Source of the DNA: Minutocellus sp. GHC0000111
Lineage: Eukaryota
Length of the DNA: 64,000 nucleotides
Assembly: GCA_977018835.1 (NCBI GenBank)
Contig: OZ361261.1
Coordinates: forward strand, 1,550,001-1,614,000
Direction of reading: 5' to 3'
A program made the translations under genes and the position numbers. The notes below the pieces were generated by a model. That model was given only the letters and a program-made list of their open reading frames with translations. It ran no database searches and was not told the origin of the DNA. How positions within the stretch are numbered: position 1 is the first letter of the stretch; the number at the start of each line of letters is the position of its first letter. Of the stretch, positions 10,182 to 60,322 are shown piece by piece.

Positions 10182-10437
10182 TATTGTGTGCTACTAGCTA
10201 CGTAGTATGCCATGGAGCGTTTGTGCTTTTGTTATTATGCCATCAGTCATCATGGTCATCATGCCATGGCTGGTCGTGCTTCTTATCTATCTTCTTGGTG
10301 CCTTGCTGCTTGACGCCGCCGCGCCATCATCACATCATCACCATCGTCGGCGAAGTCGAAAGTCGCCGAGAGCCACATTTGACTGACTCACTCGACTCGA
10401 CTCAATCCCAACGCGCGAGGGCCGAGTCGAGTGAGTC

Positions 10438-13383
10438 TACGTCCAGCACGTTAATCCCGTCTCACGTAGGTGCTAGTGCTAGCTACGTTGCACCCCACCG
10501 AAGCCGGCCAAAACCCTTTTTTGCCAGAAGTAGCAGGGCAATTTGATCATTTTTGCCCCCCGTTTGATGAGTTTCGACCGCGTAAAAAGTTAGCCATCAA
10601 ATGACTTCCGGGGCCGTTTTAAGGCCCCTCTGTGTTCTCTCTTGACACACAGATCGACGAGGAACAAGCACGAACTCGAGCGGCAAAAACGCAAAAACAA
10701 CCATGGCTCGCACTGCTCTAGCTAGAGCTAGCACCGATGTTAGCAGCAGCGCGGCACGCGGGAGGCCGCGCCGCACCCTCCCCCCCACAACATTGAAACA
10801 GGGCGTTGAAGAAGGAGCGAAGCTCTCTTTCGTTCCCCCTTTCCCCCCCGGCATCAGCAATGTGAGAGAAAGTGAAGGGTTGGAAATTCGACCCCAAGCA
10901 ATTGCTTTGACTCTCAAAACGTGTAGAGGACTCCGGCATGCAGATCTAAAGGCAGGTAAAATAGATTTAATTTATTGCCGCAGCTCTCTCTCTGTGTGCA
11001 TGCACATGTGTGTGTGCACATGTACACATGTGTGCATGCAAATAGGTAATGGCAATGGTAGTGGTAATGGTAACAATAACAGGGGGTTTATGTTTTTAAG
11101 TTTTTCGTGCTCCTCCCTGCTAGCTAGCTAGGAAACTCCTGAACAACAATGACGGATCCATCGGCAAAGGTCTTAAAACACAACAGTCCGTTGTTCAATA
11201 ATTACATTCAATTGAATAGGTAGCCTCATTTGCATCAGTAAGAACGAACATCAATACGATCATCGCAACACACAAACAAAAATCACAATTGCAGATTAGA
11301 AGATGACTGACGTGTGTCACTTTTTACCACCATCATGTGTCGCATCTTGCCCAAGAGCCACTAGCACCACCACCACCACCACCACCAACTTCACCACATT
11401 CTCGAGAAGTGCATCCTCCATAGCTCAATGAGTTTCTCGAATTGTTCTTCATGCGATACATGGAATTCATCGGGAGGGCGAGAGGAGGCCAAATCAGGTG
11501 TTTTTGTCGCGTGCGTATCTCGTTTACGTTCGGTTTGATCAAATAGTGACGTCATACCCCTACTACCTTCTTACGTAGTACGTGCGTGCGAGGAACTCGT
11601 TGGAAATCGGGACCAAAATACTTATGCCCCCACTTGTTTAAACCCGCTCTTTTTCATCACGGCGAAAGTATGGGCTCAACCATGGTCACCGCCGCCGCAG
11701 ATATCTCCACCACCAACACCGAGTAACTCACAGTCTGCATTCGGAACGGCCCTTCGATACCTCTTCGGCACATGTGCACCGAGACTGTGACTTACTTGCA
11801 TGTAATTCTTGAGAAATAATATCCCAAACACAACACATGTTCCGACTTCGTCCCGATTCGACGGCACCACCCCACCAGGAGGCGCCCATGAATGCATTGT
11901 CTACCACCCATTTGCTCGGAGTCTGCGTTTGCATTGTCCATTCAATATATGTTGAGGCCGCATGAACCGAGACTCCGAGCAACGGGGGCTTCTATTCATT
12001 CGAATTTCCACCACGAAGATACCCCAAAATCGACATTTCCGGCTTCGTCGTGGAGCTCCGCACCGGACAAAGAACGTGACCCCATGTGCCCTGTAGCCCG
12101 TTTCTTCCGCCAGTATTCAACAGATGATCCCTCATTGATATCAACAAGCGATTTTTAGGATCATTTTTGTATCCGAGGGGTGTTCACAACGTGCAATTCT
12201 ACTGCTTTTGTTTGTGCTCTGATTGGGCTGGCGCTGGTGGTGGTTGGGGAAGGATAGCAGCACGAACGCCCATTGTGCTGTATCCTTCGCTCAGATGATA
12301 GCTATACAGACCAAGTAGGGTGAAGTTAAGCGCTATAGTGTCTCAGTGGGGCTTTATCTCTTTATTTTATATGTATCGTGCTCTTGCTTATGTTATGGTT
12401 CGACTTTGCTCCATTCCCAGTGATTCAGACATCTGCCGAATGGGCAAGAGAAACGGTCCATCGTCCCCACCCACCATATTTGAGTACTTTCATATCACAT
12501 GTGAGCGAGAATACCCGCTACTGCGGCCAATCAGCGCTCAGTGCCCCATATCATAAGCATCTCTAGAGTTGGATAATTCCACCCCAAATCTTGAACCATT
12601 TGAAAATCACAAATGTCCAATGTTTCCCGACAAATGAGGACCCGTTGGCCGCAGAAATGAAATCGATATCCACTATATATACACACCAGCCTGTGACTGG
12701 ACTGGATGGCCGCCAAGTGGGGTGGTTGTATTCTCTGCAGGTAAAGTGAGAAGCAAAGGAATAGTTGAGGAGAAAGTAAAAAATCTGCTTTCACTTGTCC
12801 ATGTGTGTGAATAGAATGATACCTCTGACCGGAGACCACAATCAACGGCTGCCCAACCCACCTCATATATATATATTGGCCACCAAAGCCAAGCATCGGC
12901 CAGTTTCGGTCGTACATGAGGATTTGAGTCCCCTCTTCTGGCTGCAGCCACCTCCAAATCATCGATTTTCAGCAAGAATTTGACCGAAATGTTGGAAAAC
13001 GATTTTTCCCCAGCCTTCTCCACCTCAAATATCGCTATCAATCCATCCCATAACATCATGAAGACGATATACCATCGTTTCGCAGCAAGCGGTGGTGTAC
13101 TTCCTGCTCTTTTTGAGTGCAAGCAAGCTCCAATTCCGCGCGGTAACGAGGGGCGGAACGACGTGCAAGTGAGCAGCAATAAATTCATGCTCTACGGCGT
13201 CAGTGACGAGCTTCTGCGGTCAAGACGCGCTCATAACATCCTAATGCAGGTATGTGTTGCATGTGGCTGCGTCTCATGGAGTGTATCGCCCAGCGTAGCA
13301 GCTTTTAAGCTGTCAACAGGGGGTTTTCCCCCGGGAAACGAGATGATCCCTCCTGGTACAAGTTGAAAAACGTGCTGGACGTA
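10438..13383. mobile_element. Putative non-autonomous TIR DNA element (2.95 kb) inserted in a GAGTC microsatellite
   Basis: Perfect inverted repeat TACGTCCAGCACGTT (10438-10452) / AACGTGCTGGACGTA (13369-13383). Identical GAGTCGAGTGAGTC flanks at 10424-10437 and 13384-13397. No convincing gene inside. Confidence 0.65.
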
Positions 13384-13746: not shown

Positions 13747-16111
13747 TCACTCATGCCCACAGATCGATCGACCCTTACCTCTCATTTCTTCCTGATAATC
13801 GAAGATATCGCGAGTGCTGCGCTCAGGGATACCGATGCTGCGATCTCCGGAACCTAACGTATTCATTTCGGCAGTTCCTCCCTCGCTGACGATATCATCA
13901 TTCGCTCTGGCTCTTCTTTCCATGACTCGGTCAACAAATAGAACAACGCCAATCCCCAATAAGAAGCAAATGGATCCAATGACGGCCCAGATGGCATTCG
14001 ATGATGTTGTAGGAGCTACCAGCGACCTTGGTGAAGCATTTATCGGGGCACCCATTCTTGATTCTACAGGAGAAAGGTCATTTTCGGAGTCACCGCTGCC
14101 GAAGAGGTTGCTCACACTTGAAACGAAGCTGTCCGTGATGCTCTGGCTACTAGAACTACTTCTCTCGGCAGTGCCAAATAAGCTGACCCCGGTGTCCGTT
14201 GAATCCAATCCGCCTCCACCGACGCATCCGTCGTGCTCTGCAAAACCAATGCGTCCCTCATCTACATCGAAGAGAATCTCATGGCCCTGGAAGATGTTGG
14301 ATCCCAGACGACTGATCCCAGAAGGGTCCACGATGCTCACAAAGAACTTTATGCTGAAACGGTCGGTGTCGTGGTCATATTTTAGGTAGTGAGAGGGAGG
14401 AATAGCAATCACTGCATCAAATGGATGGTGAGTGTCGAGATTGCGATAGGCAGCCAAACCGGGTATTGTTGATGGGTCGACTCCAGTTTGTTCGGCATTA
14501 TCAGCTTCAAGCTGAAGCAGCACCGTGGGTAACGTACGGACTTCCTCGTTTGTAAGCTCCATGCCTAGATAGCTAAACTTTTGCCCGGACATATCTTCAA
14601 ATGCGCCAATAAAGTCCTTTTCCAGGGCACGGTCGAAGTACGTGTAGGAAAGTTCCGTGTCGACTGACACGCCGGGTAGACTTCCGTTGACACCTCCATT
14701 TATTCGATCGTAGTCGACTTGATCAAGTGCATAGACGGTAGCATCTTCGCCGTAGTCATTGCCGATGGAAGCCAGGGACGGAACAGGCCCATCGCCGATA
14801 GAGGCTGCACTCTCGATGTCACCTTGTCGGAGGTAGACTTTGCGAAGGCGGACGGCGTAGCTCGCTGTGGTAGTTGTTTCTTTATTGTTTTGAATTTCCT
14901 TTTTCAAGGCAGAATTCCGAGCAAACACGAGAGGGGTGATATGATGCGCTCGGTTGACATCACCCAAAGATACGACGTTGTCATTTCTCCCCACTCGACC
15001 ATCAACGATATCATTTGCTTCCCTTTCCTCGTCGCTTAGTACTACCCCAAAGCTCATCTTATCGAAACACAGTCCAAATCGACGATTAGATATGATTCCC
15101 TCCTCAACCAAAATACCAAGGAACGACGTTGGTGCTGCACTCATGCCCACCAGCCCCGCACCCCTCCATCGGGCGTCGTCCTTCTCATCACCATCTCCAT
15201 CGACATCACCGTATGCACCCAGGTTTTGGGCCGCAAATCCCTCGGCCTGAGAGAGGCAGTCAATGGCAAGAGGCAAGAGGCAAGGTCACACTGTCCTTTT
15301 TTCCTACTTTGCGTGTAGTTGAGCGGCTGTTAAACTGTTGTCAGCCTGATTGAAGAGTAGAGTTGCGATGTCCGTGACTGCCATGGCAGTGTAGGTACCA
15401 TCCTGGACAAATCCCAACTCATTGGTGATGGTCGAGCCAATCGTTGAGGTGGAAAGGCACATGCCGCCGGTGTTGGCACCACACTGATATTGGTGTAATG
15501 GATGCAGGGATGATGGACAGGTCGAGCATTCGGTGAATACGGCAGTGTCGCTGGCAGCTGGATCGTAGCACGCGCGCAAATCATCCACATCATCAATCTT
15601 GCCGGCAAAGTCGGCATCAGTGGCCTCGGGACATGCGTTGCATCCGTTGCATCTCGCGCATGGGAGGAGGAGGGGGACATCCAGACCAGTGCTGATAGCA
15701 AAGGTGTGAGGAGATTGGTTCGAGCCAAGCAAAAGCTCGAGGGTGTGTCTGTCGATGAGGAGTAGATGTAACGATGTTGCCGATTGTGGGTGCTTCGGTG
15801 TCTTCATCATCGTCGGCAAGGATTCTACCCTTGCTCTTCTTCCCCCTTTGCAGTCGCTTTGTAGTAGATTGTTTCATTGTAGTAGCGCTAGCGGAGAGTT
15901 CGCGAATGATCCCACCGTCCGAAGATGACCCAGCGAAGAGAAGATACGCTCCGACCAGGCAAGTGCTCCCCGCGATTATGGCCACATCCCGTCTCATACG
16001 CCTCTGCCGTCGTGACTGTTGTTGTCTTTTTCTCTCGCCACTAGATCTACAAGCAGCATTCTGGGATCTGGCCGAAAAGAACGGTGACTTCTTCATCTTG
16101 TCGCCATGCAT
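13747..16111 (-). pseudogene. Membrane-anchored A1 (pepsin/plasmepsin V-like) aspartic protease homologue with degenerate catalytic motifs; frameshifted
   Basis: TLELLLGSNQSPHTFAISTG..PC (DTG is STG), RRFGLCF, YAVRLRKVYL, VSVDTELSYTYF (DSG is DTE), LGSNIFQGHEILFDVDEGRIGFA..C and a C-terminal TM. Frame break near 15745; stops and a 7-nt duplication at 15270-15306. Confidence 0.7.
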
Positions 16112-16679
16112 ATCTTGTGCTTGTTTGTTCGGGAGAGATTGTGAAAGCAAGATATCGAGTGCAGATAGATTACTCCTGTTCTAATGAGCTATTGCTGCCA
16201 ATCGTTGGGTATCAACGAGGATGCAATGTATTGTCGCTACGTACAAGATAGACGTTATCTGAGTGGCGGCTTTGAAGGCAGGGTGGGTCATGGTGCCTTG
16301 CGTTGGCATTTTATGGGAAAAGTTGGCATGTGGATCAGTCATTCACGGTCATGTGGATCATGACACGTCACACAGAAGCTCACAACCTCTACAATCTTCA
16401 CAAAGCATGGCAGGCTTGCTCACAATGAAAATTGTTGGTTTCCGAATGATGATTGTGGAGGACCCACAACCCGTTCGTCCAACGCACGCCCAACGCATGC
16501 CCCCACTCCTCTCACTTCCGCTCCGTCGGAGCCATGGGACTCCCTCCTCCACACCTCATCTTCCTGAGGACAACCACCAATCAAACCTCCCATGTCCTTT
16601 GCATGTTGGTCTGAGCAACGTGTCTTGCGCTCTGCTGATCAAGCAAAGCCCACCACCCAAAGGCAGCACACACGTCGCC

Positions 16680-18180
16680 GAGTTGGTCCCACTTTAGGTG
16701 AGGCGCTTCAGGACGTTGGAGACTTTGCTAACTTCGCTCGCGTTGTCGGACGACGGAAAGACCGACGTCCGTCCATTTTTTCTCCCGAACGAAGCTCATC
16801 ATGGTGACCCCCGCTCCTGGCCGCTGCGCGTTTGCAAGGCAAGACATGGGCGAGTTGGTCCAGCTTCAGGTGAGCCGCTCGACCCAAAAGCTGGACGCTC
16901 GTCTTTCCGTCGTCCGCGTTTCCAACGCGGCGAAGCACGGGAAAAGTCGCAACTTCCTGCCGGACCAACTTTTCCCCCTGAAGCATGGCAAAAAGACTTG
17001 GTCGAGCCGGCCTGCCTCGCTTGCGTCCCCACTCCAGACACGTTCAAGGTTGGGGACGTCGAAGGTCCGGCTCGAAAGCTCCGCACACAGGCTGAGCTGT
17101 CGAGGGGGAAGAGTCACGCACAAAAAGCGACAACGACGCACGAAGACTTGCTCTCGTTGGCGGCCGACTCGGGGGCGGATGCGAACAAAAACCACAACAA
17201 CCAACCATGCAAGCACTTTCGTGCATGTGTCTTGGGCGTGTGTCTCTGCACTTCTGGGTGGGTTGGGCGGCTGTGGCTCTCACGGCGCCACTTCTCATCC
17301 GCGGCCCTTTTTCGCGAGCTCGAACGCAGGTTGGTTGTTTTGACTCACGTCTTCTCATGCAACAGCGCCAACCAAGCTGAAGCTTTTGCACGCGCAGCGC
17401 AGTGGTGTCGGCCAGCCTCGGGAGTGCCCACGTCTTGCCTTGCGAGCGTGCAGCTAGCAGCGGCCAGGAGCGGGGGCCACCATGGTGAGCTTCGCTCGGG
17501 AGAGAAAGTGGAGGGACGTCGGCCTCTCCGTCGTCCGACAACGCAAGCGAAGCCAGCAAAGTCTCCAACGTCCTGAAGTGCCTCACCTAAAGTGGGACCA
17601 ACTCGGGCACTCCCGAGGCTGGCCGACACCACTGCGCTGCGCGTGCGAGAGCTTCAGCTTGGTTGGCGCGCTGTTGCACGAGAGAGCACAAGCCAAAGCA
17701 ACCAACCTGTGCTCGAGCGCGCGAAAAAGGGCCGCGGATGAGAGGTGGCGCCGTGAGAGCCACAGCCGCCCAGCCCACCCAGAGGTGCAGAGACACACGC
17801 CCAAGACGCGTGTGAGAGCGCTTGCGTGGTTGGCTGTTGTGGTCTTCGTTCGCACCCGCCCCCGAGTCGGCCGCCAATGAGAGCAAGCTCTCGTGCGTCG
17901 TCGTCGCTTTTTGTGCGTGACCTCTCCCCCTCGACAGCTCAGCCTGCGCGGAGCTTTCGAGCCGGACCTTCGACGTCCCCAACCTTGAGCGCGTCCAGAG
18001 TGGGGGCGCAAGCGAGGCAGGCCGGCTCGACCAAGTCTCTTTGCCACGCTTCAGGGGGAAAAGTTGGTCCGGCAGGAAGCTGCGACTTTTCCCACGCTTC
18101 GCCGCGCTGGAGGCGCGGACGACGGAGAGGCGAGCGTCCAGCTTTTGGGTCGAGCGGCTCACCTGAAGCTGGACCAACTC
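16680..18180. repeat. Interleaved inverted repeats A-B-A'-B' with GAGTTGGTCC termini
   Basis: A 16680-16851 pairs with A' 17426-17604; B 16852-17429 pairs with B' 17605-18180. Both A and B begin GAGTTGGTCC..TT(T/C)AGGTGAG. Confidence 0.9.
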
Positions 18181-19085
18181 CGCCCTGACTTGTCGCTGAG
18201 TGGACTGTTTGAGGAGGAAGTTGAAAGAGGGGCTGCCAAGAAAGCGGTCACTCCACGCTGGGTTGGTGGGTGGGGGCAGCCTGCTTGCCCAGCCACCCAC
18301 GACTGCGCAAGAGCGACTTTGCCAGCGCGCAGACAACCCTGGAAGGCACCACCACCTCCTCGCCGCACCAAGAAGGACAAGTGGATCCAAGACTGACTTC
18401 AATGGCTTCGTCAACAGCCTGGACTGTCCCAAGTCGGTCAAGGCTGCGCGCGCTCGGGGGTCAGAGAGAGAGAGCCAAAGAAGCGCCAACGCGAGCCAAC
18501 AGCTGAAGGCGAAGAGCGCTTCGACTGCGAGGCTCGTGGTGACGTGGACGACGAGACAAGGGGCACTCTCACCCTGGCAAAAACCAACGCCCAGGGAAGC
18601 GATCCAGAGCTCAACGTTGATGACTTCAAGTTTGGTCGGGGCCTGACTTGCGACTGGGGAGCAAGAGCTTTCCCAGAGAGGGACGAAGTGCCAGAAGGTG
18701 GCACCTGGCTGCAGGACCAGAGAAGCAAGCAAAGGACAGCAACCAGTGGGAGCCACTCACCACTCAAGTTGACGGGGAGCACGTGAAAGTTGATGTGTCA
18801 ATGGTGAAAGGAGACCAACAAGAAGCGCTCCTCACCGTGATGAGCAAAGTCAAAGAGTGGGTGGAGCGTGCAACATCAGCTGACCCAAACAAGGCACGGA
18901 CGTTCAAGCCACTCTGCCTGACAGTGCAGGGGTGTGCCGGGTCTGGGAAAAGCTTCTTTGCAAAGTGCCTGGTCAACACAGTGAGAGAGATGTTTGGCTG
19001 TGAAAACGTTGCACGTGTGGTGGGACCAACAGGAGCAGCAGCCTGGTCAGTTGGAGGTCAAGCAGCGCGCCGCAAGCTTGCAGCT
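18181..19085 (+). pseudogene. Fragment of a PIF1-family helicase, probably Helitron-derived
   Basis: PLCLTVQGCAGSGKSF (Walker A) and VVGPTGAAAWSVGGQAAR (motif Ia/Ib; consensus APTGxAA..GGxTIH). Upstream frames are broken, and the fragment is truncated before motif II. Confidence 0.8.
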
Positions 19086-19839
19086 AGCCCACGCTCTCCC
19101 TCACTGAGCCCCAGCCTGCTTGCCACGCTGTTGGCCCATCGCATTGCCCACCCTCTCTCTGATTCATCCAGCCCATGTCTTTTTTGTTTGAGGGCGCTCA
19201 CCCACCAATTTGCCCACGTCCTTTGCACGTTGGTCTGAGGCACAAAACGTCCCACCAAAGTGCGCCTGGTCCGTCTGTGCCCGCTCCTCCCACCCAGCTC
19301 AACCTTGGAAACGGGCAGGGCAATCTTCCATCTGACTTTGTTTTGAGCAGCAGGGACCTTGGTCGCCTCAACCCTGGCCTCTCTGAGTCTTGCAACTTCA
19401 ATTTTTTTTGCAAGCGTCTCCTTCCCATTTTCAAGGCTCACTGTCACCGTCGTCGCAGCAGCCCCTTGTTTGCTTCTTCACATGTGTGTCAAGCTCTGCA
19501 GAGAGCAAAAAACAAATGGTCAGAAACACCACGCCATCAATCCCCCAGACTTGTGCGCCAATTTGGGAGCTTTGGCAGCACCTCTCAAATGGACTCCTGT
19601 TCGAGTGGCCAAGACTGCAGTCAGAGCGCTTTCACGAAGAGCGCTTTGGGCTTTTCTGAGCTCTCCCCTGTGCAATTGGTCAGGCAGTCATGCCAAGAGA
19701 AGATGGAAGAAAGGCAATCCTTCCCAGCCAAGTGTCTGCTGTGCTGGCAATTGAGTCTGATCCAAGTCGGTCTCACGCTGGACACTTTCACAACCACTTT
19801 GCATCAGCTCTTGGTCACTCTGCAAACGTGACACAGCAA

Positions 19840-22620
19840 TTGATTGGCAGTTGAAGTCTCTGGTGAACGTGCTGAAGTTGGTGGAGTCTAACTTTGGAAA
19901 GCCCACAGGAGGCACACCACTTGATGATGCAGAGCGCTCACTGGAGCTTCTTCATCAGGAACTGATCACGTTGGAGCTTCTTGTGTCTGGGAGCGGCAAC
20001 CTCCAGGACAAGCCCACGCAGCAGGTCAGGGAGCATTGGGAGATGCTCAAGTGTGCCTGTCAAGTTGAGCTTGGCTGGCGGCCATTCCAAGAGGACAGGC
20101 TTGATGGGCAGATGGAACACAAGATGCACCTCTTTCCAGATGCAATTGGAGGAGTTGTTCGATTTGACCGATTGCTTCCACGTTGCGTTGGAGACCCTTG
20201 CGATGCAACTAGTGGAGAAGAGAGAGTGGTGATGAAAGTGTTGCGTCTGCACACCCTTCTGCAAGCAGTGAACAGATCTGCACGTTTCATTCATTTTTTT
20301 CAGTGACATCTTGTTCTAGTCCATTGTTGCACTCCTGCACAGTTTCTGCAAACTCTCCTCCATCACTTTCTGTGTCTTCCAATGGGTGGGGCACAGTCTC
20401 CTCAGGATCTGGGCAGGGCACAGTTTCCTCAGAGTCATCACTGCCACATCCTTCAAAATTGCTTTCCACCTCTCCATCACTTCCATTCTCTCCATCCCCA
20501 TTTCCTCCCTGGTGGTCCTCAATTGCTTCCACTGGAGGAGCCACAACATGAGGGGTGTGCTGACTGACTGACAAGATCCCACCCTTCATTGTGCAAGCTG
20601 TCCAGGCCATGCATTTCATTCCATGCCACTCTGGCTGCTGCCTTTAAGAAACCACAGTGTGGTGTGAGAGTGATGGTGCCTCTCATGGACTCTCCAATTT
20701 TGCTAGCCATGTCACACATTTCCTTCAAGCTGCACTCTCTCTTCTCCAAGTTCAGAGTGCGGAGTCCTCCACACATGACCAGAGCTGTGGTGATCCTTTC
20801 TGCATGGGAAAGAAATGTCCTTCTGTCCTGTAGAGTCCTCCCTTCAAAGCTGGTGGCATGGCAATGACAGCACACAGTGTCAAAGTCTTCTCCAATCTTC
20901 ATGTGCTGGTTGTGGCTCCAGCCCCGGCAACAGCAATGAGAGAAGGCATGCCATTCGTTCTGCACAAGGTCATGGTGGCCTTCTCCAATGTGCTCCTCAA
21001 CTAGTCTCTCTCAAAGGCACGCCTAAGAGAACCCTCCCTCAAGGCCTTGGGGAAGATGAGGCAGAACTCACCAGAGGAAATGTCCATGAGCCCATCCACG
21101 ATGTTCCTGTTGTCCCTGCTGAGCCACCAAGTCATGTGCCTTCCAAGCCCTCTCATGATCCACTCTCTCAGTCCCTCAGGATTTGTCCTGAGCACACAGA
21201 AGGCAAATTGATCTGTTGCATAATTCAAATTAATGACAATCTCACACCTGCCAACCAAGTTGCCTGAGGGGTTGGGAGTTGACTTCTTCTGCTGAGGGGA
21301 AAGGGAGCTTCTCTCAAGGAAGAGTGGAGCTGTGTTGCTCCCTGAGCAGCAAAAACATGGACTGAGACCCAGGTGCCAGATCTTAGCAACATTGTTTGCA
21401 AGTCAACTTTAGTTTTCAATGACACTCAAATTGCATTGAGGGACCACATGCATTTGGGATCCTCGATGTCAGATCCAGTGAACATGTCATGAAGAGGAGT
21501 TGGCAGGTTCCAGAAGGGATCAAAAGACTTGCCCTCAGTCTCTTCCGAGAAACTCACGTCACAAAAATCCACCAACGCATGTGTTGAAATGAACATGCAT
21601 GTGTCTCAATGCCCCCTCCCCTCCAATGGGGAAGGGAGTCATGCCACCAGAAAGAGGCGATGCACACCATTCGGCACTCATTCTCGTCCTGAAATGATCA
21701 TTGACACAGTCCTGCTGCAAAACACTGGCTAGATGATGAAAGAGAGACCAATTGTCTGTGCTCATGTGCTGCTGAACAGACAAGGCAGACACCATTCTTG
21801 GCTGGGAAGGACAGTCAGATCCTGTTGGTTGGTCATCTTCATTTTGTAGAGACAGAGCTCCTTGGCCAGAGTGGGCGACGTTGTCCTTCATGTTGGCTGC
21901 CAAGCCATCTTTCAAGCCACATTTCTCGCGCCAACCACTGCGCTCTGGGCCATTGGATTGATGGCAGAGGCATCCACCTTGCCAGCACCATGGGAGGCAG
22001 AGACAGCAGACAGTGCTTGAAAAGCAGAGTCATCACCTGTTGCAGAGGCACCATGCTTAGCTGCTTCAATTGCAGCCATGTGGTCGTGAGGAACGAACTG
22101 CTGCCCTGGCCATGGAGCCAGTGCAACAACTAGCAGCTGCAGCCTTGGCCTGAGACAAACTTTGCTTCATCGTCTCCTTGCCCTTGAAATCTAAAGGCAT
22201 GTCACCAGGAATCACCATGGAGCGTTGTTTGGTCCTCTTGGATGGACCACAGTTGTCAGTCCAGGATGAGGGAGCACTTGCACTGGATGTTGCCTGAGCT
22301 TGGGAAGAGGCATGAGCGCTGATCGATCTGCTGCCGGAGCTTGATGAGTGGACAGGTTGGGAGGTGCTGGGATTGCCTGCCACAGGAGCAGGGACAGTGA
22401 GGCGGAAACCCACAGCTAAAGGGTGGCCCACGTTGAGAGAAAGAGGGAGGACAGTTTGGAAGATTTGTGGCCTGGATGGATTGGCCATGCCAAGAGAGGA
22501 GCTCAACGCTTGACAAGATCAGCTGCCTTTTTGGCAACCTCCTCAGCGTCAGCCTTGGACGCACAGATGAGTCACCTGGCTGCTTTTGCCCATTGCTTTG
22601 GTTGGACACAACTCCTGGAA
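19840..22620 (-). pseudogene. Degraded coding sequence of unknown function inside the TIR element
   Basis: Chain of overlapping minus-strand ORFs (22609 to 19938) with an acidic tract and almost no Tyr; no recognisable domain. Confidence 0.35.
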
Positions 22621-23556
22621 CAGTGCAGGGATGGGCAAAGCGATGGCCAATTGCATGGAAGCAGGCAGGCTGGGATGACGCGTGCTGCCTTTGGATGGTG
22701 GGCTTTGCTTGATCAATCGTCAGCAGAGCGCAGGGTGCGTCGCTCGCTCAATCAAGTGTGCAAAGGACATGGGCAATTTGGTTGGTGGGCGTCCTCAGGA
22801 AGATGAGATGTGGGCTGGATGGATCAGAGAGAGGATGGGCAACGCGATGGGCCAACAGCAGGGCAAGCAGGCTCTGGGACGACGCGCGCGCTGCCTTTGG
22901 ATGGTGGTGGGCCTTGCTTGTTGATCAGCAGAGCGCAAAAGATGTGTCGCTCAGTCAGACCAACATGCAAAGGACATGGGAGGTTTGATTGGTGGTTGTG
23001 TCCTCAGGAAGATGAGACATGGAGGAGGGAGTCCCATGGCTCCGACGGAGCGGAAGTGAGGAGTGGGCGTGCGTTGGGCGTGTGTTGGACGAACGGGTTG
23101 TGGGTCCTCCACAATCATCTTTTGGTCATTCGGAAACCAACAATTTTCATTGTGAGCAAGCCTGCCAGCCATGCTTTATGTCGCTGTGAGTCACAGAGAG
23201 TCACAGCGAACGTTGCCGCCCACAGGCTCGTCACAAGCAAACGAACAATTTTCATTGTGACAAGCCTGCCATGCTTTGTGAAGATTGTAGAGGTTGTGAG
23301 CTTCTGTGTGACGTGTCTTGATCCACATGACCCCAAGACTGAAATGACTGATCCACATGCCAACTTTTCCCGCTTTTTATTGTGCCACGATGACTACGTA
23401 CGACGAACGACGTACGTACGATCGTTCAGCAAAATCGCTCATTTCTCGAGTGGCACGATGATGATACTCGTAAGCAGAAGGCGCAAGTCAGCTCGCAAGC
23501 TTGCCGCCGCTGAATAATACCGCACAACGCAACGTAGGAACTGGTGGGCGCGCACC

Positions 23557-42954: not shown

Positions 42955-43228
42955 ACAACTCATGAGGACGCGCCACATCAAAATATATCTATAATACACA
43001 ATTGGCTCTTTACCGGTACACGCCTCTTTTTTTGCTTTCTTCTCTGCACTCTTACGCAGGAATGTGACAGCACCAGTATGAAAGACCGCCGCATTCGGCT
43101 CGATAACATTGTTCTCCAACCTTATAATATTGTTCTCCAACCTTTCATGCGCTGCTCGGGATGCAACAGACTCGGCAAGGATATGCTGCTTTGTGGCGCA
43201 TGCAAGTCGGTCACATATTGTACATGTA

Positions 43229-43508
43229 CAGTCCGTCCCCGATAATAAGGATATCCATTTGGGACCTGAGGTCTGAAAATCCTTATCACGAAGCGAACTC
43301 TGAGGTCTCAACTGAGGATATTCTTATTTTAGTGATGACGTGGCAACACCAAGAAGCAAAAATAAGGTCTGACTGTTACGTCTGATGGCCTGCCATGAGA
43401 GAAAAATAAGGATGTTGGCAAATCTGAGGTCTGACTATCCTTATAAGTGGCAAGAATTTGAGGTCTCAAACCATGATATGAAATATCCTTATTATCGGGG
43501 ACGGACTG
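43229..43508. mobile_element. Tc1/mariner (pogo-like) MITE, 280 bp
   Basis: Perfect 26-bp TIR CAGTCCGTCCCCGATAATAAGGATAT; TA on both sides (43227-43228 and 43509-43510); internal GAGGTCT and CCTTAT/ATAAGG subrepeats. Confidence 0.93.
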
Positions 43509-43842
43509 TAGCAGCGAGGATTGTCAGAAGGACCACTGGGTCGATATCCATCGAGAGCAATGCCAAAAGACAGCGTTCAATTGGCTGCTACAAAAGACCC
43601 CTGTATAAATCAACAACACCTACTATTTCAGTTACGAACTACAATCGTAATAAAATATAATAATAAAGTACAGGTACATGTAGTGTACATGTAATCACAA
43701 TTACACATGTATAACTTTGTAGATCAAGTTTTGGTACTGACACCTTTAGTGGATCTACCAGCAAACACATAGGCAAATACATTTATTTTGATATTTTTTT
43801 GCATAGAATCAATCATATACATACACTCACACCTACATAAAA

Positions 43843-46477: not shown

Positions 46478-47527
46478 TTGGAGGAGGAGCGGCTGCTGCA
46501 GGATCTGGCCGAGCAGGCGGAGGGCATGGTTCCCATGCCATGCGTCTACGAGGTGGCAGCATCGTGGTTACCAGATCACATATTTGAGTACTGCAAGCTC
46601 CGCACTCATGCTCAGCTTTAAATGAAGGCTACTAACATAAAGAAATGGAGCAGAACCGGACTGCTGAACACATGCTTTGAGCTGGACATGAGATTGAAAG
46701 GTCCCTCTCTCTCGTGACTTTATTTTGCATTCGTTCGCTTTCAAGGAATTCCTCCGGGTTATTTTGGTCATAATAATAATTTTTTGCCGCCATGTCGCCA
46801 TGTCGCAACAGCAACAAACGGCACAAAAAGGCACATGCTGATGCCAAGCCCTCCATGCTCCTACGTAGCTACGCTGGAAACAGAATAAAACTCACTGTCT
46901 TGTGCTAGTAATAAAATCATGCACACTCAACCTCAGAAAACCACCGACATACCAACCGATAGAGCACTCTGAGAGGGTTCTCCTGATGCATTTTGAGCCG
47001 ACGATGCAATCAATCGAGTTGGTGACAGCAATTAGTTGCCTTGAACATGACCCTTTTTCGCTAACTTCGCCTGCGTGAAAAATGGCCACGTCACGGAGAA
47101 AGCGAACATAAAATTTATCAGGTTGGAGAAAATTTTATGTTTCAGAAAATTGGCGAGAAAAAAAGACACTAACAACCGCCTAGTAAAAAAAAACAGAAAA
47201 AAGGTTAATTGCCCCACCAAGGCAGACAGAGCAATTCTGGAAAAACTTTACTATGAATTGTTTTCTTAAGGAACAGTCCTGTCGTTGCGACAAGAAAAAA
47301 ATCGTTTCTTTGCCGATTTCGAAAAAATACCCCCCCCCAAAAAGACCGCTTTCCGGCCATTTCCAGACTTTGTCGCAACGACCAATCGAAAGAACGCATG
47401 AATTTACCTGGGGTAACTCTGTTCGACGACTTGTGCCGTATCTCTAACCGTTCGGGGGGCAAAGAGGGTGTCCCACCTCGTCAGTTTCATTCTCGTTCCA
47501 GCGTAGCTACGTAGCAACCAAACAGAC

Positions 47528-50458: not shown

Positions 50459-50805
50459 GTTCGAGATCGTAGGGTTTGTGAACGCGAATCTCGTGTTTTA
50501 TTTTTGGAGTTTTGTTCTGCATACTGATGCTTGGGTGACCTTTTCGAGAAGATGAGGCCAATGATAAGAGGAAGTGGGATGACAAAAAGTGATCAATTCG
50601 GCGAAGTTTTCCGTGGATCTATCTCTATAAAAAGCCTGAGCACGCGTTGAATGCGTGTGTAGTGCTGATGCGGTGGTGCTAGTGGCTAACGCACACTCAG
50701 GGGGTGGGTTCCCATCTGCGCGCAGAAAAGCGAGCCTTGTTTCGGCACACGTAAAAAGGCCGAGTGAAGAGTTTTGCGCAACAGCAGATGGCCCGGGCGC
50801 CCCGA

Positions 50806-51003
50806 TGAGATTAATGCGATCAGAAAATTATTTTTAAAGAAAAGCATGTCAGTCAAGGGTCGGTTGGAGGAGGAAGAAGGAGCTCTGACTTCAGTTAGGA
50901 GCAAGCAGTGAGATTAAGCGATCAGAAAATTTAAAGAAAAGCGTGTCAAGGGTTGTTGTTGGTTGGAGGAAGGAGCTCTGACTTCAGTTAGGAGGAGTGA
51001 GCA
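50806..51003 (+). repeat. Diverged ~100-bp tandem duplication
   Basis: TGAGATTAA(T)GCGATCAGAAAATT...GAAGGAGCTCTGACTTCAGTTAGGAG occurs twice. Confidence 0.85.
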
Positions 51004-51633
51004 GGTGTGTAGATAGAGACAAGGAGGTCTCTCACAATTCTGCCGCCAACAACCAAGAGAGCTAACCTTGATTGAGAGAGCAAGCCGCCAAGTTACAGGC
51101 CCACTTTTGATTGCCCCACTTCACAGTGTGCTCAAGCAGTCACCACACTAGCCTTGTGGGCCTGTGTCTGCAACACACTTTTGTTCACACATGTGCGTGC
51201 CTCTCACACACACTCTGTGGAGAGATGAGGTGGTCTGGCTTCTGCTTGGGAAAATGCACTGCACTTCGTGCTAGTCTGTTTGTGTCTCTTCTTGTGTGTT
51301 TGAAGTGTTGTCTTTTCTTTGGCGCGACTAGGGAGGACAAGAGAGAGGCCAGCAGCAAGTTGCGTGCGCGAGCGAGCCGAGAAAATTCGCAGCAAGCCAG
51401 CCGCGAAGGCGAGCACAACGTGTGCGCGCATGCATGCCTGCAAAAATTTTGTGTTGCTGTCACCATGGGAAAAAGCACGCCTCGCCAAAATCGAGTGACA
51501 TGTGAATGTTCGTCGACCTATAAAATTATAACTAAAAAAAACACACGACCTCTTATTGCTAGATTGGCCACGCCCACCCTCCAAGTGGCGACGTGCTAGT
51601 GGCATGCCTTAGAGGGCGCCCGGGCCCATCTGC

Positions 51634-51854
51634 TGACGTCAACCACACGTAAAACGTCGAATGAATCGGCGAAGAAGGTCGACTCTGTCGGCGAAGAAGG
51701 TCGTGAATTTTTCTATCTGCTGACGTCAGTTTCCCGGTTTCCCGTTTCAATGCCACTTTTTGGTCGATTTCAACTTGAAGGAATCTGATCATTAGACGTC
51801 ACACCCATTGACTTTCCACATAAGATATTCGAATATGCCCGTTTTATGACGTCA
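51634..51854. promoter_or_regulatory. Cluster of CRE/bZIP (aureochrome-type TGACGT) sites upstream of gene 52109
   Basis: TGACGTCA at 51634, 51721 and 51847, and AGACGTCA at 51794. Confidence 0.55.
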
Positions 51855-58401: not shown

Positions 58402-58599
58402 TTGTTATGGATTATTGAGCCCAGCACGCGCGCGCTAAAAATAGGCATGTGTATTACATGTATTTCTGTGTCTGACATGCCGCACGGCAACATGTACATG
58501 TATTTTTGAAACTTGCAATGAAAGGTAAGCAAAATTCACCACATCAAGCTACTGTGTTGCGACATAGAGAAATGTTTTGCTCCTGGAAATTTCGCAGAA

Positions 58600-59400
58600 G
58601 TTGGCTAGGGGTCGCCGATTAGAGGGTGCCCCCCCAGCACCCCCCAATTTTCGAGCTCGGAGGCCAAAAGGATCCGGAGGTGTTGACCATCAAAGACGTG
58701 ACTGAGGCCAGGATTTGCTGGCTGACCAGGTCAGTTGAAGCAGACACACACACGCTTTGTCAGAACTGATGAGTGAGAGTCAGCGATGGCGATTCATCTC
58801 GTTCTCGGCTTTTGCCGCCTGTGAAACATCGCGCGCATGTGCTCGTTTCTCATCAATGTCGAGCTCCGTTAGCGAAAAAGTCTTTCTCTGCTCTCTCTTT
58901 TCGCGCGTGCGTCACGACACCTGTGCTGCCTTGACACCTTCTTAGTGTCCTTCGCAGACGCCACGTTGCTACATGTAGCAGCAGTGCGTTCTGCACAGAA
59001 AAAAGAGCTCGTGTTCACACAGAGCCGACACGCACACTTCCCAGAAAAAATGGACGAGTGTCGGTCTTTCCATGCGCCGTCCGACAACGAGAGCGAAGTT
59101 AGTGAAAATCCGAATGTTTTGCTGAGTGGCTCACCTCTAAAATGGGACCAACTCAAGGAGGAGCTGCTGACATGTTTTTGTTTTTCACTCAACTGACGAC
59201 TTCAACTGCAACAACGGGCGAAAAGCAACTAACGCAATTTAAACATGCATGTAACACTAAAGTGCTGTCATGAAACCAACCACCAAAATGCTGCACCCGG
59301 GACCGAGTTTTTCTTTTGTGTGCTTTGCTTGCTTTGTGGCCTCTGACTCATTGCCCTGTCCCGCTTGGTCGTGCCTGCCGTGGTCGTGAAGAAAACCTGC
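58600..59400. mobile_element. TA-depleted repeat remnant sharing the GAGTTGGTCC terminal motif
   Basis: 59130-59154 reverse-complements to GAGTTGGTCCCATTTTAGAGGTGAG, similar to the termini at 16680 and 16852. Surviving TA are mostly TTAG/CTAA/CTAG. Confidence 0.55.
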
Positions 59401-60322
59401 GCATGCAAGAAAGAAGAGCCAGACTTGGCAATAAAAGTCACATTTTAACCCATATGTCAGAGTTTCATGTTTCATGTTTGTCCTACTAACTACAGAGTTT
59501 CATGTTTCATGTTTGTCCTACGAGCTACTAGTAGTCACAGTGTCAGAACAATGGGGTCTCGAAAATGTCTCATTTCTGCCAAGCATCGCATTTTGTTGTC
59601 CCACCTTTCTGCATCATCATGACGACACGTCTGGAGAAACAACTTCAAGTTACTTTAATGGCATAAATGTTTGTGTCAATAAATGTGTATTTCCTTTTTG
59701 GAAGGCCACTCTATACAGCCACATCTCGTGAGTTTCTTGCTTCTCGTTCTCCAATGTTTCATCTCCTCCCCAGTGTGGCTCCCGCCGGCCGTTTCTCAAC
59801 TCTCTCTCAGGCCTCAAGTCACACAACTGCACAGTAGCACAGTAGCGGCGTTCATTTTTAACATTTGCTCAAGGTGAGCACGATGGCCGAGCTCTTGCAA
59901 GCGGAGTACATATGTTCGCTGGGCTAGGGGACACACACATTTGCATCTGTGGAGGAGCCCGGTCCCTTTCGCGAATGGAAAGTTTCCTTTTCTTTTTATT
60001 CAGCACATGAAAGCAACTTGGTAGAATTTGGTGATCGAGGCAGTTGTGGGGACAAAATCGCAGTTCATCTTCAACTGCCCCGGGAGAAGAAGAAGAATAT
60101 TCGATTAGCTGTTGCATTTCACACCTTAGCATACTGCTGCCTTTGATGATCTGATCTCATCATTTGGCTTCGTCTCCTCTTTTATTGTCTTCGACTTTTC
60201 CTCATAGGCATCGATCTCAACGTCGCTCGTTGGCCCTCCGCACACAACAAACTTCGCGAGGTCTTTTCCCATACACAATTAAACACCACCACCACTTCCT
60301 CCCAGTAATAATACCACACACC

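Follow-up and report, generated by a model that had tools for sequence, protein, structure and literature searches.

Near-complete loss of TpA by A-to-G change on both strands of a transposon in the genome of a likely diatom

The window analysed here, the whole 64,000-nt stretch of contig OZ361261.1 between positions 1,550,001 and 1,614,000, contains a transposon-derived element (16315-23371) from which the dinucleotide TpA (TA) has almost disappeared. The remaining 56.9 kb, referred to below as the flank, is gene-dense and includes kinesin, HSF, RAP, ribulose-phosphate epimerase, DUF2499 and DUF3593 genes. It also includes two ASAFAP-like presequences, which we take to mark ochrophyte plastid proteins. 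The host is likely a diatom; a search with a reductase encoded in the flank did not yield its taxon. The element exhibits two Mutator-like features, terminal inverted repeats (TIRs) of about 360 bp and a target-site duplication of 9 bp, within the 9-11 bp of this class. It consists of a Mutator-like shell that contains a rearranged Helitron piece together with a decayed gene, and is organized as follows (window coordinates, with the strand where one applies):

16306-16314, left target-site duplication, 9 bp, TAT kept, 8/9 letters identical to the right copy
16315-16677, + strand, left TIR of the Mutator-like non-autonomous element, 1 TA, 86-92% identical to the right TIR
16678-16851, - strand, inverted copy of the far end of a Helitron 3' non-coding region (90% identical to relative L002, 2670-2791)
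16851-17606, + strand, arm A, hypermutated Helitron 3' non-coding region (83.5% identical to L002; 71 A>G/T>C against 8 G>A/C>T)
17605-18192, - strand, arm B, inverted duplicate of arm A (89.7% identical to it) with 34 extra private A>G/T>C
17590-19084, TA-free and ApT-poor run
18166-19110, + strand, frameshifted fragment of a Helitron PIF1 helicase gene, Tyr (6/6) and His (6/7) codons converted at A
19113-19239, + strand, internal copy of the inner TIR segment, inverted relative to 22747-22873
19240-22700, inner body, TAY erased, YTAR partly kept, CpG depleted except RCGY
20338-21392, - strand, decayed gene without Pfam family, homologues P0012 and P0013 about 60% identical
22880-23371, - strand, right TIR with a short internal duplication, 2 TA
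23372-23380, right target-site duplication, TAT kept

Only 26 TA remain in the element, against 2069 in the flank. The expected number is 256 (Poisson p 5e-76) and the observed one corresponds to about 10% of the flank rate. The surviving tetramers are CTAG (8), CTAA (6), TTAG (4), GTAG (3), TTAA (2), CTAC (1), ATAA (1) and TTAT (1). Grouped according to neighbouring purines (R) and pyrimidines (Y), observed over expected numbers are 0/84 for RTAY, 2/69 for YTAY, 4/66 for RTAR and 20/37 for YTAR, and the YTAR share of the survivors (20/26) compares with 14.5% in the flank (p 2e-12). YTAR is the slow class; itself halved, it is not immune. The TA-free run at 17590-19084 extends over about 1.5 kb. 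The nearest flanking TAs, at 16312 on the left and 23378 on the right, both lie within the copies of the target-site duplication. These exact counts reproduce what the initial annotation had drawn from a hand count, namely some 26 TA in 7 kb with TA throughout the flanks, the TA-free run, edges coinciding with the TIR ends, and about 20 YTAR survivors without any RTAY. It had also described the open reading frames (ORFs) as poor in Tyr and rich in Cys and His. The first part holds in six-frame translation (Tyr 0.04% in the element, 2.0-2.4% in the flanks) while the second reduces to a mild excess (Cys 4.2% versus 3.5-3.7%, His 4.0% versus 3.5%). ApT is also depleted in 16680-19100, where observed/expected (o/e) ratios of AAT and GAT are 0.10-0.40, and CpG is depleted in 19100-22700. 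The change has raised the GC content to 55%, versus 51%. One of the six survivors outside YTAR aligns to a conserved Asp and, from this alignment, probably arose recently as a TA through a transversion. Each TIR has kept one TAC at the corresponding place near its end (16390 and 23288), perhaps a constrained transposase-binding site or the result of recent homogenisation.

Part of the stretch is contained in 14 of the 18 listed sequencing runs, which represent 4 studies of marine and sponge samples, and four runs (X1, X3, X5 and X10) were compared in detail. X1 and X3 possibly correspond to the source sample and were set aside as not independent. Contigs of X5 (study P2, Illumina 2018) show 0 other letters over 18131-19328 (1198 bases) and 1 over 19869-22653 (2785 bases); those of X10 (study P4) show none over 15843-16376 (534 bases, across the left end) and 22624-22984 (361 bases). 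A check against independent sequence had been proposed in the initial annotation; these contigs provide it, and an assembly artefact is excluded for the parts that they cover. The X5 contigs come from an RNA library and equal the hypermutated copy letter for letter within 18131-22984, although contigs cannot show expression. For the same reason, no use was made of their distribution, which covers the element and leaves 15000-15950 without cover. No empty-site joint is listed among the compared contigs, which cannot show absence.

The direction of change was obtained from intact relatives. All 9 fetched relative loci keep TA (o/e 0.36-0.68) and RTAY; in relative L001, the TA ratio is 0.43 with RTAY present and the CpG ratio is 0.52. 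None of the ancestral TA aligned to L001 or L002 survives in the element (0/19, 0/22 and 0/19). At codon second positions compared with the intact PIF1 protein P0001 (gap-free columns, 4 codons with other changes dropped, Arg and Ser unscored), A/T became G/C at 32 of 166 positions and G/C became A/T at 1 of 91. Conserved residues were lost in the process (Tyr to Cys, His to Arg, Val to Ala) and the window copy is therefore the derived one. The two strands of the PIF1 fragment are hit equally (A changed at 70/276, T at 50/175). In the inner gene, all five Tyr common to both homologues (5/5) now read TGT, CAT or CAC; since these are TGY or CAY codons, both strands were hit. Contigs of the same family in the same runs carry A/T where the window has G/C at most transition places (X1 240/280, X3 208/244, X10 222/258, X5 110/122). 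At the ATAT site of sibling contigs, T>C is found twice in the left TIR and A>G once in the right TIR, therefore the two TIRs were hit separately.

The internal duplication allows the changes to be ordered. When rooted by L002, the two arms share 47 upward (A:T to G:C) changes, to which arm B has added 34 of its own and arm A 10. This amounts to 44 upward changes after the duplication, compared with 4 downward changes and 1 private transversion (4 three-way columns were left unassigned), while 19 transversions shared by the arms reflect their distance to L002. The occurrence of both shared and private upward changes indicates that the process was active before and after the duplication. Codon, family-contig and arm tests thus agree on the A>G/T>C direction and on its presence on both strands, as initially claimed: the polarised changes are A:T to G:C rather than mostly C>T, and the intact relatives are not equally poor in TA. 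Among 18 other PIF1 proteins compared with intact references, we found no second saturated copy and no strong upward skew.

The changes follow a graded motif. Pooled rates for the PIF1 fragment and arm A, relative to L001/L002, are 28/46 for TAY and 10/37 for TAR. At sites preceded by a base other than T (V), they are 114/311 for VAY versus 39/393 for VAR (p 1e-17), and control comparisons between intact copies are flat, without skew. According to the 3' neighbour, ApT is the most frequently hit (83/170) and ApC reaches 59/187. The codons compared with P0001 show the same preference (ApY versus ApR p 2e-6), with Tyr 6/6, His 6/7, Asp 4/23 and Asn 1/8 for ApY, and Gln 0/12, Glu 0/21 and Lys 1/21 for ApR. 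After the arm duplication, when TA was nearly gone, AAY was changed at 7/38, CAY+GAY at 15/122, AAR at 15/114 and CAR+GAR at 0/172. A 5' T is therefore far above A, itself above C/G, and a 3' pyrimidine helps in every class: TAY goes first, followed by other ApY and AA sites, whereas CAR and GAR escape. In the inner body it is mainly the top tier that has been hit; the Helitron piece displays every tier. Because a hit on either strand destroys a TA, RTAY vanishes first and YTAR lasts longest. A two-rate model (TAY and TAR on each strand) fits with TAY changing about 9 times as fast as TAR and leaves 0.3 RTAY expected, where none was seen. The initial annotation had proposed TAY as the target with YTAR as the survivors. 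Its asymmetry of TAY over TAR is present in the full counts, but the target is not restricted to TAY, since tiers outside TA are hit and YTAR is halved. In the CpG-poor body, RCGY occurs 35 times versus 12, 12 and 10 for the other NCGN classes, an excess that would result if new CpG is continually supplied by A>G and lost again through methyl-CpG decay.

The loss of TA ends at the TIRs and the flanking genes are normal in TA, in agreement with the proposed restriction to transposon DNA. Either precise targeting or transposition of an already mutated element may account for the sharp edges. They do not prove base-precise targeting, because an element that was mutated and then moved would look the same. 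Helitron family contigs that keep A/T have 5.9-8.8 times the depth of the window copy in three runs. This steady ratio suggests that they come from the same genome, although depth is not copy number. As the deeper-covered copies keep A/T, being repeated is not enough to be hit, unlike in repeat-induced point mutation (RIP). The "reverse RIP" of the initial annotation, taken in the sense of a trigger by copy number, is thus unsupported.

Known eukaryotic mutational defences (RIP, APOBEC, CpG decay) turn C into T. RIP of ascomycetes is triggered by homology in the sexual cycle, hits all copies and is linked to a RID/DNMT4 enzyme. Like the present process, it disrupts reading frames through dense transitions that depend on sequence context and affect both strands of transposon DNA. 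However its direction is opposite, since the C>T changes of RIP create TpA whereas here TpA is erased, and A/T is retained by the abundant copies of these runs. The initial annotation knew of no characterised system of this kind, but there is a precedent, likewise without an enzyme. Mettrop et al. (bioRxiv 10.64898/2026.01.13.699255) describe TpA>TpG/CpA hypermutation arising in integrated viral DNA of Bigelowiella natans lines, with A>G or T>C accounting for 230 of the 231 changes. It occurred in some lines only, at about 1000-fold the base rate, and transposon domains are reported among the TpA-poor genes; ADAT2 is proposed as a candidate, the enzyme being unproven. The element shares with this system near-pure A>G/T>C changes, TpA as the prime target on both strands, confinement to mobile DNA and a direction opposed to AT bias. 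The preprint reports TpA only, and its main text does not contain the words "diatom", "trinucleotide" or "pyrimidine" (10.64898/2026.01.13.699255). Here, by contrast, VAY is hit (114/311) and 37 of 41 post-duplication changes lie outside TA; lower tiers that would go unnoticed in a short experiment may become visible at saturation. Further differences are the likely host (a diatom, thus a stramenopile, rather than a rhizarian), the substrate (DNA transposons rather than viral inserts), the near-saturated loss of TA and the 3' pyrimidine preference. We found no published account of A-to-G transposon hypermutation in diatoms in a literature search that left subscription journals largely outside. 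The process itself is not unprecedented; what is new is its polarisation by intact relatives and the tiers outside TA.

The observations to be explained are the direction of change, its presence on both strands, the near absence of transversions, recurrence after duplication, restriction to transposon DNA and the graded motif. We favour a region-targeted DNA adenine deaminase, with a probability of roughly 0.55. Repeated A:T to G:C transitions on both strands would have rewritten the transposon as a host deaminase, likely steered to silenced mobile DNA, turned adenine into inosine, which is likely then copied as G. Such deamination could be carried out by an enzyme of the TadA/ADAT fold guided by chromatin or RNA; it may have a defensive role and may be identical with the Bigelowiella process. 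Pure A>G is what would be expected via inosine from TadA, ADAT2-3 or TadA-derived editors, and the preference of TadA8.20 for UA, and for UAU most (PMC12027372), resembles the targeting of TA in the element. The element presumably is, or was, CG-methylated, because its CpG has decayed and diatom transposons are reported to be methylated by DNMT5 (PMC9998398). The new CpG arising from A>G, visible as the RCGY excess, could be methylated in turn.

Several results weigh against this explanation. No deaminase family was found among the 29 ORFs of the window; two loose HxE-PCxxC pattern matches in the six frames were judged to be chance. No deaminase is known to fit the whole motif, TadA, TadA8.20 and amphioxus ADAT2 included. 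TadA reads UACG (PMC10586758), and a preference for G at +2 was looked for here and not seen (37/94 versus 36/87, 45/97 and 24/79). TadA8.20 edits UAG well and CAC poorly (PMC12027372); in the element, by contrast, TAG changes slowly (4/22) and CAC is among the targets (18/57). The ADAT2 of amphioxus is capable of DNA adenine deamination and prefers GAA (PMC10354150), a context among the least-hit classes in the element (4/64 and 0/42 in two counts). Moreover, AA is hit where CAR/GAR is not (15/114 versus 0/172, p 6e-7), a WA pattern like that of polymerase eta, and the predominance of changes outside TA after the duplication, by which time TA was almost exhausted, differs from the TpA-only record of Bigelowiella. 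The targeting would also have to spare the deeper-covered copies, which keep A/T in the same runs. Finally, L001 and L002 are 76-84% relatives and not the true ancestor, which dilutes the rates, and some of the changes scored as upward could instead have occurred downward in these relatives.

Error-prone patch repair, resembling the second phase of antibody hypermutation, would place the cause in T:G mismatches from methyl-CpG decay, with a Y-family polymerase (eta or iota) putting G opposite T at TA and AA nearby; it is the main rival, but we consider it unlikely. Transversions make up about half of antibody A/T mutagenesis. CpG is depleted in the same element, diatom transposons are methylated by DNMT5 (PMC9998398), and the 5' order T > A > C/G matches the WA hotspot of regionally targeted somatic hypermutation by polymerase eta (PMC6423074). 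However the latter follows C>U deamination by AID and its A/T mutagenesis includes transversions (PMC6423074), whereas the arms gained 1 transversion versus 44 upward transitions after duplication, and CAY+GAY is clearly hit (15/122) where CAR/GAR is not (0/172). In addition, L001 is CpG-poor (o/e 0.52) yet has kept TA (0.43), and the 230 of 231 A>G or T>C changes in Bigelowiella are reported with no matching C>T load (10.64898/2026.01.13.699255). A miscoding base modification on silenced DNA, either an oxidised T at RTA that pairs with G or an N6-methyladenine later deaminated, appears improbable. Since TAY reads RTA on the complementary strand, the sequence is the same whichever base bore the lesion. 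ApT, the usual context of N6-methyladenine in eukaryotes, is the most hit 3' class (83/170), but changes fall on ApC (59/187) and TA as well. In eukaryotes, methylated ApT is a mark of active genes, and we know of no modified thymine from diatoms.

The other explanations account for less of the pattern. GC-biased gene conversion between repeat copies would need no special mutator and is compatible with the raised GC content (55% versus 51%) of repeated DNA with long inverted arms. Yet it gives no reason for a trinucleotide hierarchy, for the avoidance of transversions or for the removal of every RTAY in 7 kb; it should homogenise the arms, which differ by 10%, and the abundant potential donors carry A/T. 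We regard it as very improbable. Hardly any more credible is A-to-I editing of double-stranded RNA of the element followed by writing back into DNA. The long inverted repeats would give such RNA, contigs from RNA libraries cover the element, and the 5' preference of ADAR (U > A > C > G) is comparable; its 3' preference for G is the reverse of the pattern observed. Moreover the changes fall evenly on the two strands, even beyond the hairpin; the element, with its TIRs and target-site duplication, is a DNA transposon; and contigs from the RNA library show exactly the letters of the DNA. Lastly, the chance that the pattern is an assembly or sequencing artefact, or a property of an intrinsically TA-poor family, is negligible: even if X1 and X3 are possibly the source sample, two other studies give the same letters in the covered parts, and the intact relatives of the Helitron part, as distinct from the outer shell, hold TA and RTAY at ordinary levels.

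The adenine deaminase reading can be extended, tentatively and with the odds somewhat against it, to a dedicated natural enzyme of diatoms with the specificity (T>A>C/G)-A-(Y>R). Recruited to silenced transposons, it would destroy their genes and seed CpG for methylation. It would do by A-to-G change what RIP and APOBEC do by C-to-T, would occur in Rhizaria as well and could thus be ancient in the stramenopile-alveolate-rhizarian (SAR) lineage. A natural DNA adenine deaminase, if true, would matter for base editing, where all such enzymes were evolved from TadA, and the quantitative motif (5' T > A > C/G, 3' pyrimidine) is usable to screen candidate enzymes. With this locus, A-to-G hypermutation extends to transposons in a likely diatom, and knock-out tools exist for diatoms. 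In diatom genomes, transposons changed in this way would escape annotation and be misdated, and the GC content would be biased.

Non-autonomous Mutator-like elements may carry captured DNA (Pack-MULE). The element resembles this type in its long TIRs, 9-bp target-site duplication and passenger fragments. It differs in that no Mutator transposase was detected in it and in that the passenger is a rearranged Helitron piece. In its six frames, no Pfam match to a Mutator-like transposase was obtained, with a sensitivity lowered by hypermutation, and the only Pfam matches were two weak ones of AAA type. An Rfam scan gave no match, nor did a comparison of the TIR with viral contigs. The PIF1 relative P0001 (86% identical over the query) matches PF05970 (E 8e-12). 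Relatives L007-L009 combine Helitron_like_N (Rep) with PIF1; Helitron_like_N was not detected in the window fragment. Coverage of the Helitron 3' segment (16680-17535) is tens of times deeper than that of single-copy DNA in the DNA runs, and this segment is likely part of an abundant short non-autonomous family.

The protein family of the inner gene (P0012, P0013) comprises 7 sequences in two clusters, without Pfam assignment, and exhibits a Cys/His/Tyr-rich core with an acidic tail. No homologue was found for the inner ORF 21562-22029 (0/151 candidates) nor for ORF 19941-20315. A second, diverged copy of the inner body is present in X1, X3, X5 and X10 (19306-19898, with 51 other letters, and 20143-20763). 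A version lacking 1753 bases (joint 20763-22517) was observed in X1, X3 and X10; over 31 letters at this joint there are 4 differences, all of them A/T versus the G/C of the window.

Elsewhere in the window, two MITE-like (miniature inverted-repeat transposable element-like) elements, which are not TA-poor tracts, occur at 46861-47514 (35-nt inverted arms, 584 apart) and 43227-43510 (28-nt arms, 228 apart). Three small non-genic islands show a weaker form of the same signature. The island at 50521-51825 carries a short direct repeat and is RTAY-free over 1304 bases (15.6 expected), with 17 of its 35 TA in YTAR. That at 10205-11022, adjoining GAGTC and CA/TG micro-repeats, is RTAY-free over 817 bases (9.8 expected; YTAR 11/24). 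The third, at 58500-59452, is RTAY-free over 952 bases (11.4 expected; YTAR 10/17) and contains a 110-bp piece related to the Helitron end (59043-59154).

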